DNA of 64,000 bases from Candidatus Heimdallarchaeota archaeon (GCA_018238155.1 JABCTZ010000045.1:36452-100451), one strand, 5' to 3'; positions 3,407 to 11,514 are shown, numbered from the stretch's first letter. Made by a program: numbers and translations. Notes: generated from the letters alone by a model not told the origin.

Positions 3407-3494
3407 GCGGGGATAGCCCAGCACGGTCAAAGGCGCAGGATTTAGGCTCCTGTCTCGTAGGAGTACGCGCGTTCAAATCGCGTTCCCCGCACCA
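3407..3494 (+). tRNA. tRNA-Leu (anticodon TAG), CCA encoded
   Basis: Acceptor stem GCGGGGA/TCCCCGC; anticodon arm CAGGA-TTTAGGC-TCCTG; long variable arm CTCGTAGGAG; T-loop GTTCAAATC. Confidence 0.97.
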
Positions 3495-3595
3495 ATCACA
3501 CTATTTTCTTTTATTTATTGTTTCTTTCATTCATTGTTTTAAACTAAGATGACTTTAAGAAAGAAAAAATGTACTATTATTACAGGAGAAATTAG

Positions 3596-5179
3596 ATGCC
3601 TGCATTCTTACGTTGGGATTCAGATCCATTACTACTCGATCCAACACCACTAAAGCAAAATACTTGGATAACAGCAAATAGATTACTAGCGCAAGAACAA
3701 CAAGAAAAATTTCTTACTGCATCAAAATATCTCTTTTTGTATCCTATTTTGATCCGCAAAATTGATTTTATTTCTGGGGAGCGCATTTTACAATCCTTTC
3801 CATATATCGTACTAGATCAAGAGTGGGCATTAAGAATTAGAAAACAATCACTTGCTCTTGCAGAGAATTCTCACTACTATTTTATGGGTTCCAATATTTC
3901 TAAATCTGTTCGTGGTTGGCAACAGAGAATCATTTCTTACTTGGATGAACAACAGCGACTTCCCTTTCCGCTGTTCCGGTTGGTTCCATCCTTTGAGGAT
4001 TTTTTTCAAAGGAAACTAGCAGTACAATTCCAATCTGCTCGCGGAAAAAACTATTCCATTCCAACAACTCTTACTAAGCAATTAGCTTATTTGTGTGGAG
4101 TTGTTAATGGTGATGGTCATCTCCACCGACATTGGCTCAGAGTTGTAGATGAAACGAAAGAACATATTGAGTTGATTTCTGATTTATTTGAAGAATTATT
4201 TAGTGATTCAGGTGAGATTTTTCTTACTGGCAATGCTTGGAATGTCGAATTACGTTCTTCTTCTGCTGTTCGATTATTTAATTTCCTTACGGACCAGACG
4301 ATTCAGGGAGCAAAATATGATTCACTTAGAGAACCGTTTGTATTTCAAAAACTGGGTGAACCATATCGAAGTTTTTATTGGAGAGGTGTAATGGATGCAG
4401 ATGGTTCCTTTAAGCAACACATTTCATTTGGTAGTGCAAGTGAAAAATATGTAAAAGATTTTAACGACTATCTGCATTCTATTGGTATTCAATCTAAACA
4501 GGGAAAAATAGGTACAACAGCTTTTAATCTCACTATACCGGCACTTTATCGTTTGCAGTTTATCAAACGAATTGGGGTAAATAATCCAAAAAAAAGAGAA
4601 GATATGTTGCAATTATTTTCAAAAATTCGATGCAAATTTAAGGGATTAAATCAAAGAAAATTGCTCGAAGGATTGTATTTCAACTTTCTTGAAATCCCTG
4701 CTCTTAATGTAAGAGGACTTGCTATTCGAATCAAACAATTAAGAGGGGAGAAGACAATAAAAGAACGCAGTCAAGAACTTAGTATTGCAACAAATCAGTA
4801 TCAAGCCTATGAAAAAGCAACTCGAGCAATTCCGATTAGAACAGTACAAAGGTTATTTCTGAAATCTCCAAAAGACCTAATGAATCTCTTATCAAAACAA
4901 ACTAGTCTTTTGTATCAAATAGCATCTTCACAATCAATCAAACTACCAATACAAGTTACAAGTAGTATAATTGAATTATTGAGCTTATTTGAGCCAACTT
5001 CGAATTATGTTAAAATTCTTCTTGAATTACCTCAAATTCAACAATATGTAAATGAAATATTTGGATTACCACTAATAAACAATCGACTAAACAGTAGATT
5101 ACTAGTTACTTTTTGTAGAACTTTTGGATTGTATGAAAAACCAAGTGTATCAGAAATTGATATTGAACCTTTTTGCTAA
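3596..5179 (+). CDS. free-standing two-motif LAGLIDADG endonuclease-domain protein with an XRE-type HTH
   Basis: LAYLCGVVNGDG and YWRGVMDADGSF motifs; TIKERSQELSIATNQYQAYEKATRAIP HTH; AGGAG SD. Confidence 0.8.
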   Translation: MPAFLRWDSDPLLLDPTPLKQNTWITANRLLAQEQQEKFLTASKYLFLYPILIRKIDFISGERILQSFPYIVLDQEWALRIRKQSLALAENSHYYFMGSNISKSVRGWQQRIISYLDEQQRLPFPLFRLVPSFEDFFQRKLAVQFQSARGKNYSIPTTLTKQLAYLCGVVNGDGHLHRHWLRVVDETKEHIELISDLFEELFSDSGEIFLTGNAWNVELRSSSAVRLFNFLTDQTIQGAKYDSLREPFVFQKLGEPYRSFYWRGVMDADGSFKQHISFGSASEKYVKDFNDYLHSIGIQSKQGKIGTTAFNLTIPALYRLQFIKRIGVNNPKKREDMLQLFSKIRCKFKGLNQRKLLEGLYFNFLEIPALNVRGLAIRIKQLRGEKTIKERSQELSIATNQYQAYEKATRAIPIRTVQRLFLKSPKDLMNLLSKQTSLLYQIASSQSIKLPIQVTSSIIELLSLFEPTSNYVKILLELPQIQQYVNEIFGLPLINNRLNSRLLVTFCRTFGLYEKPSVSEIDIEPFC

Positions 5180-5384
5180 AAAGTTCTAAATAAATATAAA
5201 ACTCTATCACACAAATCTTACAAAGTATATGAGGGACGTATTTCCACAGCATTTTTATCATTTAGAACGGTTTAGATGTGTTTTTCTTGATTTTAAAGCA
5301 GTGTATATTTTTCGAAAGTCCAAAAATTTATCCTTTCCTGTTCAGAAGGTGAGAAAGTCCGATTTTTTTCCATTGAAAAAAGAG

Positions 5385-6154
5385 TTATATTTCAGAAAGC
5401 CCAGCAATTTTCTGCTTTTTTATGTTAATTCTTTGGCAAATTTCTCTATACAAGCAATCTGTAGTGAATATATCACACAATCTTCTTTCTTTTTTATTGA
5501 TTGACAGATTAACATGTCTTTTCGTATTTTATTCAAATATATCTCAAAGGCTTGAATGTTTTCAGAAGTTACTTCTGCTTTCTGGAATTGTCCTGTGAAA
5601 TAATAGTAAACACCAATTTCTGTTACTTTTTTAATATTGATTAAATCCTGGTGTGGTAGTATATTAGAAATCAAAACGGTATAGAATAATAGTTCTTCTT
5701 CATCAAATTCCCCAGGATATGGTTTGTATTCAACTATTCGACAATTTCCTTGATCATCTAATTGATCTATTCTATCTATTTGTCCTCTATACTTTGTATT
5801 CTTTAGAAAAAATTCTACAGCTACTGGTTCCCAAAAAGTCTTTTGTTGTTTATATCTTTTTATTTCGCTGTCTATGAATTGTTTCTTCCACTGTTCATTC
5901 TTATCTGATTGTCCCAATAGAGGATAGAGATTATTTTGTATATCTTCGCCAAATTTCTGAAAGAATTTTTGCAACCAATGATGTCGTTCTATACCCTCTG
6001 CTAAATTTGATTCATAATCAGAATAATCCTTTCTTACACTTTTTTCTGTTTGTTTATTTAATTCTTTTAACAGATAGAATTTGAAAGGGCATTTTATGTA
6101 TGCAATAAATTCCGTCTTACTTAGATTAGAACTTCTCTTGAGCAATTTCTTCAC
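5385..6154 (-). pseudogene. Cas4-like PD-(D/E)XK nuclease with a probable +2 frameshift near 5474-5479
   Basis: N-terminal CPFKFYL, G..RH, GQIDRID, IVEYK; removing one GT from TGTGTG restores the C-terminus DCDIFTTDCLYREICQR...SEI-stop at 5385. Confidence 0.75.
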
Positions 6155-10792: not shown

Positions 10793-10852
10793 AAAACTGC
10801 AAATGACGTAAATGCAATTAAAATTAAAGATGAAGATACGACTGAAGATAAA

Positions 10853-11395
10853 TTGGTGAAAGATGTAAAAAAACTTCTAAAAATGTCATTTGAAGGAAAT
10901 TTCTTTGACGTTAAAAGTGCATATGATAAAACAAATAGAGCAGAAATGACCAAAGATATAATCGCTTTAGTAAATTCATCAGAAGAAAACAATAATACAG
11001 CATATGCAATAATTGGTATTGTAGAAAAAAATCAAAAATTCGTTTCGGTAGAAAATGTGGAGAAAATAGATATCATAGAACAAAAGATTGTGCATTGTAT
11101 AATACATAATACTAATCGAAAAATAAATCTACAAATAAGAAAAATAAGAATCTATGAACTCTATCAATGGCAACAAAATAACGAAATTACAGATGAGATA
11201 GTTTTTACTGAAGAGCAGAAAAAACTGGAAAGCAAAGAGCAAATATTAGTAATACAATTAAAGAGAGAGCCAAGAGTGGTTTATGAATTGGCAAAGAAAA
11301 CAGGACCATATGAAAAAGGGAGATCATGGAAAAGAATTGGGTCACATACAGATGAATTAACACAAGATGATAGAGAAAAGCTAATGAAAATTTAA
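10853..11395 (+). CDS. Schlafen/AlbA_2-domain protein (in frame with the upstream cdc6)
   Basis: EGNFFDVKS...KDIIALVNS...AYAIIGIVE and C-terminal WKRIGSHT fit the AlbA_2 pattern. Confidence 0.75.
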   Translation: MVKDVKKLLKMSFEGNFFDVKSAYDKTNRAEMTKDIIALVNSSEENNNTAYAIIGIVEKNQKFVSVENVEKIDIIEQKIVHCIIHNTNRKINLQIRKIRIYELYQWQQNNEITDEIVFTEEQKKLESKEQILVIQLKREPRVVYELAKKTGPYEKGRSWKRIGSHTDELTQDDREKLMKI

Positions 11396-11472
11396 ATCAA
11401 TAAAGGATTAATTCTAAGAGACTTGAAATCAGAAAGAAATGGTAATATTCTGATCGTAATTAAGATATCTTT

Positions 11473-11514
11473 TCTCGTAGGAGTTCACGTGTTCGAATCG
11501 CGTCCCCCGCACCA
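11473..11514 (+). repeat. degenerate copy of a tRNA-Leu 3' end (attR/TSD-like)
   Basis: TCTCGTAGGAGTTCACGTGTTCGAATCGCGTCCCCCGCACCA versus 3453-3494: 5 mismatches in 42 nt. Confidence 0.9.

Follow-up and report, generated by a model that had tools for sequence, protein, structure and literature searches.

Cas1 proteins have been found in two contexts, namely CRISPR adaptation and casposons. Mobile elements which carry a tyrosine integrase and target transfer RNA (tRNA) genes reportedly fall into an anticodon-loop and a T-loop class (Williams 2002, cited in PMC8813620). Extremely diverged Cas1 homologs, possibly tied to new mobile elements, have been described computationally for Asgard archaea (Makarova et al. 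2020, CRISPR J 3:156, as cited in PMC8730458 and PMC9939771), and a co-opted homing endonuclease has been proposed for the site-specific integration of HeimM2, a tRNA-adjacent element of Heimdallarchaeum (Wu et al. 2022, PMC8813620). Here, a stretch of 64,000 nucleotides (nt) of Candidatus Heimdallarchaeota archaeon (GCA_018238155.1 JABCTZ010000045.1:36452-100451), referred to as the window, was analyzed. In an island at a tRNA-Leu gene it encodes a Cas1-like protein together with a LAGLIDADG endonuclease and a Cas4-like nuclease. The source metagenome-assembled genome (MAG) is labeled G000 and its contigs C, genomes of the same genus are G001-G009, and collected loci are labeled L. Window positions fall on contig C6.

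A six-gene cassette within a composite island

The genes F1, orf91, F6, F7, F2 and F4 (orf200) form a cassette of about 6 kb (3596-9428). The most likely explanation, held with slightly better than even confidence, is that it serves as the mobility module for integrative elements whose family is restricted to one genus of the Heimdall group. The cassette lies within a composite island. The block analyzed here is the right-hand part of that island at a hypervariable tRNA-Leu(UAG) locus, and the true left limit is located upstream of the tRNA gene. The block consists of the following features:

3407 to 3494, plus strand: tRNA-Leu(UAG), named tRNA-Leu*, identified by ARAGORN; intact and judged to be a functional replacement copy inside the island
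3596 to 5179, plus strand: F1, double-motif LAGLIDADG endonuclease with an N-terminal domain of about 160 amino acids (aa) and a C-terminal domain of about 200 aa rich in helix-turn-helix (HTH) motifs
5229 to 5504, plus strand: orf91, small conserved open reading frame (ORF), overlapping the 3′ end of the nuclease gene on the opposite strand
5420 to 6154, minus strand: F6, Cas4-like PD-(D/E)XK nuclease (PF12705, PDDEXK_1, 7e-13)
6221 to 6913, plus strand: F7, small HTH/coiled-coil protein with weak HTH matches and conserved position
6928 to 8811, plus strand: F2, Cas1-like protein of 627 aa, with a winged HTH (wHTH) at 1-72, Cys-rich Zn ribbons at about 80-200 and a Cas1-like domain at about 239-627
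8822 to 9424, plus strand: F4 (orf200), last gene of the cassette, with a weak wHTH lead; it follows the Cas1-like gene in all full loci
9429 to 9468, no strand: junction where the cassette meets the Cdc6 block; colinearity with L021 stops at 9428 and similarity to G009 restarts at 9469
11468 to 11514, plus strand: 3′ exon remnant of the ancestral host tRNA-Leu, with decayed intron-like sequence before it and host flank after it

A sequence-only reading of the window had described the island as lying between the tRNA-Leu gene and a distal copy of its 3′ end with 37 of 42 identical positions. Both were recovered, by ARAGORN and by a direct-repeat search, respectively. The longest direct repeat in 2500-13000 pairs 3448-3494 with 11468-11514 (47 nt, 40/47 identical, 85%), which in the 42-nt frame of that reading gives 37/42. 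The gene content given there also proved largely right with respect to the LAGLIDADG fold, the PD-(D/E)XK nuclease, the Cas1 fold and the Orc1/Cdc6 protein. The wHTH genes listed there hold for the N-terminus of F2, whereas the products of 6221-6913 and 8822-9424 gave only weak HTH or wHTH leads; the language-model look-up of F4 returned HTH families, all with scores below 0.9. The predicted lack of PolB, Cas2, a CRISPR array and a classical integrase was borne out as well: scans with Pfam, NCBIfam and PHROGs found no PolB, Cas2 or tyrosine/serine recombinase among the island ORFs of at least 60 aa, and no tandem or CRISPR-like array was found in window 1-20000. PF00239 (serine recombinase) has no match in G000, and PF00589 (tyrosine recombinase) matches two genes, both outside the island. 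The two PF00589 proteins gave no tblastn match in the 70 fetched loci, which is a weak test.

Two of the smaller members of the cassette are conserved by position. Matches to orf91 (38-56% by tblastn) were found at the same position in C43, C13, L021, L042, L044, L052 and L054; it has no family match and no language-model look-up match. The place and orientation of F6 are kept in every full cassette. Its translation shows one N-terminal and three C-terminal Cys residues, whose spacing was not compared with Cas4, and no Cas4-specific model matched.

The Cas1-like and LAGLIDADG proteins

The Cas1-like assignment of 6928-8811, which had been made from the sequence by eye, was checked at the level of the fold, and the Cas1 fold, the domain order and the catalytic E/H/D/E residues were all present. 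At the sequence level F2 stays below the Pfam gathering score of PF01867 (13.4 bits, E 0.042, cut-off 22.3), and this family matches 7 of 26 F2 relatives (E up to 1), the best with 8.9e-8. Searches of PDB sequences with F2, as a single sequence and as a profile, recovered the wHTH part only, so that fold comparison was required. The AlphaFold2 (AF2) model of F2, built with 26 homologs, has a predicted local distance difference test (pLDDT) value of 83. All of the top 50 PDB matches found by Foldseek with this model are Cas1 or casposase. Structural comparison of the model with a second aligner, VIA, gave Z 18.8 to 4n06_A, the Cas1 of A. fulgidus (model residues 239-624), and Z 18.4 to the casposase 6opm_B of M. 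mazei, at a root-mean-square deviation (rmsd) of 3.0 Å. It has the two-domain architecture of Cas1, consisting of an N-terminal beta domain and a C-terminal helical catalytic domain.

The candidate catalytic residues of F2 are E387, H468, D481 and E484. H468, D481 and E484 are invariant in the family, and position 387 is E or D in 26/26 sequences. The same pattern is present in distant F2 paralogs of 660-1400 aa. The motifs also align in register with the CRISPR Cas1 of G000 itself, a bona fide Cas1 encoded on a separate contig (C15); the probability of this hhalign comparison is low (0.29) and it served for motif register only. A phmmer search against 1.84 billion representatives yielded 19 relatives, among which there is no recognized casposase, and a larger collection contains about 30 F2 clusters, of which all taxon-named ones are labeled Heimdallarchaeota. 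The structural model indicates that 6928-8811 encodes a genuine, highly diverged Cas1 fold with its catalytic residues kept.

The LAGLIDADG protein F1 is the partner of the Cas1-like protein. Its Pfam LAGLIDADG match is weak; the AF2 model reaches a pLDDT of 92.5, and by Foldseek its core resembles I-DmoI and I-Tsp061I with template modeling (TM) scores of 0.65-0.72 at an rmsd of about 3 Å. The model contains the double alpha-beta-beta-alpha-beta-beta-alpha core with an acidic residue ending each LAGLIDADG helix, and no recombinase fold was found in it. Across 33 sequences, G172-D173-G174 and D267/D269-G270 do not vary; D173 and D269 are the catalytic Asp residues. The F1 family comprises more than 150 clusters, the taxon-named ones of which are nearly all from the Heimdall group with several per genome, and about 10 copies are present in G000. 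By its model, F1 is apparently an active LAGLIDADG endonuclease.

Recurrence and distribution of the cassette

Whole-genome tblastn of G000 identified the same six-gene order on C43 and C13, and rearranged or more distant versions on C42 and C17. The versions on C17, C19 and C11 encode a Cas1-like protein of 1200-1400 aa and a DEAD/MZB/metallophosphatase helicase. F1 and F2 occur together in 8 of 10 G000 loci, and the remaining two have a truncated F1. The gene order is kept in at least 13 loci, which come from independent metagenomes, down to 33% identity of the Cas1-like protein. A survey of 83 genomes of the class detected the family in 8 of the 10 other genus members, with 1-12 matches per genome; the 72 genomes from other genera had no match. 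Since this pattern is limited to the genus, multicopy and patchy, the cassette is distributed like a mobile element and unlike a housekeeping operon.

Several copies are connected to tRNA genes. The cassettes on C43, C13 and C11 each directly adjoin the encoded CCA end of a tRNA with an intron; these tRNAs were identified with Rfam and missed by ARAGORN. On C43 and C11, partial copies of the tRNA 3′ end follow past the element (24-28 nt with one to a few mismatches, some in tandem), and the elements L042 and L056, which show such a partial copy too, likewise terminate at a tRNA. For the C43 tRNA, a search for an empty site found all relatives occupied or in tandem arrangement with unconserved flanks.

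A further accumulation of tRNA fragments was observed downstream of the C13 cassette (C13:175533-180797, L011), where five tRNA 3′-end fragments in the same orientation (ending ...GATCGCCCACCA) are located among short gene blocks. A full tRNA with this end is absent from the assembly, and the C13 cassette itself abuts another tRNA, which is tRNA-Val-like. Past this tRNA, the DNA is nearly identical to that past one of the fragments (ending at 176129).

The tRNA-Leu locus in related genomes

The sequence-only reading had proposed a comparison with relatives that have an empty tRNA-Leu site, and such sites exist. In G001, G002 and G003 the tRNA-Leu(UAG) is directly followed by the ABC gene, and in G004 the site is empty as well, with a native tRNA-Leu that contains an intron. 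To the right of the island follow ABC/MFS genes, whose orthologs were identified in the genus. The gene tRNA-Leu* is 97.7% identical to the tRNA-Leu in the G009 island, but only 88.6% to the native tRNA-Leu of the empty site in G001. The distal copy with its right flank matches the native tRNA-Leu of G001 and its downstream DNA with 93.9% identity over 98 nt, so the repeat is not due to chance, and the last 24 nt of the remnant 11468-11514 are identical to the native G001 tRNA.

In the native tRNA-Leu(UAG) of G004 (L039:3090-3214), a 37-nt intron is located just past the anticodon loop. ARAGORN did not detect this tRNA, and it found only 20 tRNAs in the whole G000 assembly. Intron-containing tRNAs are therefore probably common and under-called in this genus.

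In G009, a 5′ piece of the host type of tRNA-Leu, which agrees with G001 at 34/34 positions, is located 6.8 kb upstream of the functional tRNA. Similar host-type 5′ fragments were found in L021-L023 and G005, and they stop at the anticodon loop. Before the distal fragment of G009, a remnant of the 37-nt intron of the G004 type is clearly recognizable, and before that of the window a more decayed one. On the left side, the JAB-domain gene is the host flank adjoining the tRNA in G001-G003, whereas in G000 the same gene is separated by 5.7 kb from the tRNA on its right, with a HEAT/Schlafen gene, two small ORFs and a TnpB gene in between. The displaced 5′ fragments, the intron remnant and the shifted JAB gene indicate that the ancestral tRNA-Leu was split at the anticodon loop or intron, with 11468-11514 being the old 3′ exon and 3407-3494 the replacement. 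The ancestral 5′ piece is kept in relatives and lost in G000. The arrangement may have arisen either by a single insertion of the left block, the tRNA and the cassette, or by elements which accumulated on both sides.

Two further interpretations of the repeat were examined and dropped. A reciprocal attP x attB mosaic, with which 6 of 7 informative sites agree, was given up as proof once the displaced 5′ fragments and the intron remnant had been found; four changes in the distal copy may represent AT drift (about p = 0.06). The altered anticodon stem of the replacement tRNA was considered as immunity against the nuclease, but variation in this stem is also seen among native tRNA-Leu genes of the genus.

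The island itself is composed of separable parts, as the sequence-only reading had considered possible. The closest relative of the cassette, L021/L024, shares 72-77% protein identity and is colinear with window 1433-9428. It contains a 44-nt tRNA-Leu fragment directly after the orf200 homolog, a fragment that is absent from the corresponding junction in the window, and it has no Cdc6. At this junction (9429-9468), no relic of the tRNA repeat was detected between orf200 and Cdc6, the local alignment score of 14 being at shuffle level. G009 shares with the window the left part (TnpB with 86% identity, the tRNA-Leu with its 97.7%, and the first approximately 175 LAGLIDADG codons) as well as the right part (Cdc6, orf180 and the tRNA fragment, about 89%). 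Its middle part differs and encodes another LAGLIDADG protein, a large Cas1-like protein, a helicase and a type I restriction-modification (R-M) system. As the flanks are the same and the F1/F2 core is different, the core seems to have been exchanged between shared flanks. The block Cdc6-orf180 (9469-11467) is a separate one, either older or exchangeable, since it is missing in the closest cassette relative and present in G009 beside a different core.

Other inserts occupy the same site in relatives. G005 has a different insert of 6 kb (L040:2456-8321) which encodes an ABC ATPase, an FtsX-like permease and a caspase-domain protein. It contains neither a LAGLIDADG nor a Cas1-like gene and is bounded by the host 5′ fragment, a replacement tRNA-Leu and the host 3′ fragment. 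In G009, a further insert of 3.6 kb (L036:13889-17489, corresponding to C63:53889-57489) separates the tRNA-Leu 3′ fragment from the ABC gene; it contains a dCTP deaminase-like gene and two unknown ORFs, and about 40 nt of flank are duplicated at both of its ends.

A sister element bounded by inverted repeats

The element on C17 (L014) has a perfect 22-bp inverted repeat (L014:3727-3748 and 14839-14860, corresponding to C17:163726-163747 and 174838-174859), which is extended outward by a second 22-nt pair with 86% identity. The unit enclosed has a length of 11.1 kb and encodes TnpB, a LAGLIDADG protein, a Cas1-like protein of 1392 aa and two helicase/phosphoesterase proteins. One more copy of the 22-mer is located at C3:62809-62830, and partial copies were found on C8 and at C6:29675-29692. 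No target-site duplication (TSD) at this element was obvious by eye. The arrangement of this sister element is transposon-like.

Other genes of the island and its flanks

Three further genes of the region lie outside the conserved cassette:

1656 to 3254, plus strand: TnpB (IS605 OrfB / Cas12f-like; PF07282 with 2e-21, PF01385), broken gene
9614 to 10792, plus strand: extra Orc1/Cdc6 paralog (TIGR02928, 273.5 bits, 2e-81, cut-off 181.3), outside the conserved cassette
10853 to 11395, plus strand: orf180, possibly Schlafen/AlbA_2-like, without Pfam match, traveling with the Cdc6 gene

The TnpB gene of the window is split by an in-frame TGA at 1890-1892 into the ORFs 1656-1892 and 1893-3254, and its orthologs in L021 and G009 are intact with 532 aa. 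In about 8 of about 17 loci a TnpB gene is located directly upstream of the LAGLIDADG gene, and these TnpBs are diverse (27-86% identity). Due to this neighborhood and to its presence inside the inverted-repeat pair of the sister element, TnpB may be a gene of the elements.

The Cdc6_lid and Cdc6_C domains also match 9614-10792. This Cdc6 is present only in G000 and G009 (89%), and the chromosomal Orc1/Cdc6 found throughout the genus is 64-69% identical to it. The gene orf180 was likewise found only in G000 and G009 (90%), and neither of the two genes has a copy at the other G000 cassette loci. The AlbA_2 assignment of orf180 in the sequence-only reading agrees with its language-model look-up (SLFN_AlbA_2 clusters, score 0.94), which is a lead only, and finds no counterpart in Pfam.

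A second Orc1/Cdc6 gene is located at window 43565-44743 (C6:80016-81194). Its product is 69% identical to the island copy, has orthologs of 64-68% in other genus members and is presumably the chromosomal initiator. A protein of 840 aa with HEAT repeats and a C-terminal Schlafen/AlbA_2 domain is encoded at C6:34134-36656 on the minus strand and enters the window at 1-205. Its gene belongs to the additional 5.7 kb on the left side of the tRNA-Leu, and the right-hand block closes with the AlbA_2-like orf180.

Proposed function and alternative explanations

The strict co-occurrence of F1, F6 and F2 over large divergence suggests that the three enzymes act together in cutting, trimming and strand transfer. 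In such a scheme, the LAGLIDADG enzyme would recognize and cut the stem-loop target in the tRNA and/or the element junction, which would generate 3′-OH overhangs. The ends would be trimmed by the Cas4-like nuclease, and the Cas1-like protein, equipped with its own wHTH and Zn-ribbon DNA-binding modules, would join the 3′-OH ends to the target. The small HTH proteins could regulate the process. Whether this amounts to an undescribed two-enzyme machine for DNA insertion, in which LAGLIDADG proteins cleave tRNA stem-loops, a diverged Cas1 with a Cas4-like nuclease transfers kilobases of DNA and the islands replace the tRNA they disrupt, is doubtful, and we put it forward tentatively.

A number of results weigh against the cassette being a mobility module. 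No terminal inverted repeats (TIRs) above shuffle level were found in the window copy with four choices of boundaries and three more including the TnpB side, which agrees with what had been noted by eye before; in the same kind of end-to-end alignment the positive control C17b scored 46 against a shuffle maximum of 27. Cas1-type staggered integration is expected to leave short exact duplications. The tRNA repeats which flank the elements have a length of 24-47 nt and are imperfect in the four pairs compared; at the island, a short exact TSD of about 14-15 bp was not found, the flanking repeat being 42-47 nt at 85-88%. This repeat is, furthermore, explained by the split ancestral tRNA and not by integration at the tRNA 3′ end. 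A tRNA is absent from the available flank in about half of the metagenomic loci; of the conserved gene order and tRNA linkage that the sequence-only reading had proposed to look for across homologous loci, the former holds and the latter applies to about half. An exact-pattern scan of metagenome contigs, narrow in scope, gave 0 matches to the predicted attP/tandem junction of an L021-type element, and neither a circular form, an attP junction nor element activity was found in the metagenome contig scan. A scan of IMG/VR yielded no relatives on viral contigs. The patterns shared by the window with G009 and with L021 also fit an old, vertically inherited island with homologous recombination. Finally, the MAG itself has a completeness of 90.7% and a contamination of 5.9%.

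A rival explanation, which we consider rather unlikely, is that the LAGLIDADG enzyme is what really mobilizes the element. In that case F1 would cut the tRNA at the stem-loop or intron, and the island would be copied by homing repair or inserted by a cohesive 4-nt cut-and-join. The replacement tRNA would be carried for that reason, and the Cas1-like and Cas4-like proteins would serve DNA capture, end processing or defence. The full F1 fold with both catalytic Asp invariant and extra DNA-binding domains, the excess of F1 over the Cas1-like gene in copies and clusters, and the lack of an exact TSD-like duplication all agree with it, as does the fact that the island interrupts the ancestral tRNA-Leu at its anticodon loop or intron, where archaeal intron homing endonucleases are classically found. 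The role proposed for the homing endonuclease of HeimM2 (Wu et al. 2022, PMC8813620) points in the same direction. However, LAGLIDADG enzymes cut and cannot join, other copies begin exactly after the tRNA CCA and not at an intron site, and the fact that F1 is strictly accompanied by a Cas1-like protein with intact catalytic residues, even in very divergent variants, speaks for a joint function. The reverse claim, that the Cas1-like protein is the only plausible integrase of the island, did not hold either, since a LAGLIDADG gene is present in every full locus examined here and its product, apparently active, is an equally good candidate for site-specific cleavage. A less probable explanation is that the cassette is cargo, a CRISPR-derived system of defence or DNA surveillance with Cas1 and Cas4 and without an array, in islands built by homologous recombination or by an unrecognized recombinase acting in trans. 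The accessory genes of sister elements are indeed defence-like (NERD nuclease, DEAD/MZB/metallophosphatase helicase, type I R-M, TPR/LRR), which also counts against a mobility role, and the loci without a detectable tRNA junction, about half, fit cargo as well. Presumed defence roles are given to array-less Asgard Cas1 systems in the relevant passages of reviews citing Makarova et al. 2020. Yet PADLOC identified no defence system for the core proteins, its matches being limited to HTH parts, and up to a dozen family-profile matches per genome would be unusual for a defence system. The islands occur at several different tRNAs, each with its own diverged F1/F2 pair and no other recombinase, and one sister element is bounded by TIRs.

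The explanation with which the analysis started, a single discrete 8-kb casposon-like element without PolB, with the Cas1-like protein as sole integrase and a captured host Cdc6 as replication gene, is now very improbable and largely refuted. The Cas1 fold of F2 speaks in its favor, and a host origin of the island Cdc6 is plausible because its nearest relatives are the chromosomal Orc1/Cdc6 proteins of the genus (64-69%). Casposons of Methanosarcina, such as that of M. mazei, also target the 3′ end of tRNA-Leu (PMC6977970, as cited in PMC9939771). But Cdc6-orf180 is missing in the closest relative of the cassette and in every other cassette locus except G009, where it accompanies another core, and this is not compatible with a role of Cdc6 as a stand-in replication gene. 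In place of an att or TSD pair bounding one 8-kb element, the distal repeat is the exon of a split ancestral tRNA, the insertion reaches left of the tRNA with 5.7 kb extra compared to G001, and neither a TIR nor an exact TSD is present. The mobility module within a composite island, that is a Cas1-mobilised-like element which is no casposon, is the explanation retained; the product is unlike a casposon insertion because TIRs are missing and the flanking repeats are long and imperfect.

Comparison with known systems

If the proposed role is correct, the cassette would represent a third use of Cas1. This use would be found in those archaea that are closest to eukaryotes, and one genome would hold TIR-bounded as well as tRNA-bound sub-families. 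Such a third, experimentally untouched setting would broaden the roles of Cas1-type integrases and bear on the origin of Cas1 and Cas4 adaptation modules. The locus also presents a tRNA gene split by an island and replaced from within, which is relevant to the origin of split and permuted archaeal tRNA genes. The evidence is computational, and its value is that it provides precise substrates for tests, namely the proteins, the sequences of the target tRNAs and both the occupied and the empty alleles.

Compared to casposons, the cassette shares a protein of the Cas1 family whose catalytic residues are intact and which has additional DNA-binding domains; as is often the case there, Cas4-like and HTH genes accompany it. 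It also shares the lack of Cas2 and of a CRISPR array, and the tRNA-linked, multicopy and patchy occurrence. It differs in that casposons (families 1-4) have a family B polymerase, TIRs and an exact TSD of 14-15 bp, none of which is present in the island. Moreover, its Cas1-like protein is far more diverged than the casposases, below the Pfam threshold, and has a LAGLIDADG partner in every full locus.

The tRNA-targeting elements with tyrosine integrases resemble the island in their flanking partial tRNA copies, breakpoints in the anticodon loop or T-loop, restored tRNA, empty sites and tandem fragments. In contrast to them, no tyrosine or serine recombinase was found in any copy or collected locus, and relatives of the tRNA-Leu locus show a displaced 5′ fragment besides the 3′ fragment.

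The elements which bear the cassette are partly anticipated in the literature, and the class is not wholly new. Of the Cas1-mobilised, PolB-less Asgard class suggested by the sequence-only reading, the mobile-like behavior is in line with the multicopy and patchy cassette, and the claim of complete novelty is countered by the Asgard Cas1 homologs reported in 2020. Beyond what the articles that cite Makarova et al. 2020 state on these homologs, the present analysis revealed the empty sites, the splitting of the tRNA, the swapping of the core and a sister element bounded by TIRs.

HeimM2, likened here by its description, is similar to the cassette elements in its kilobase size, its tRNA-adjacent location, its occurrence in the Heimdall group and its homing-endonuclease homolog; the terms Cas1, casposon and LAGLIDADG have 0 occurrences in the text of Wu et al. 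2022 (PMC8813620). Finally, F1 shares its fold and catalytic residues with I-DmoI and I-Tsp061I, and the island is located at a tRNA intron position. F1 differs from these enzymes by being free-standing, about three times larger, equipped with added DNA-binding domains and part of a multi-gene cassette. The setting also differs from that of an intron-encoded homing endonuclease, as the interrupted tRNA-Leu is unspliceable and is replaced by a second gene.

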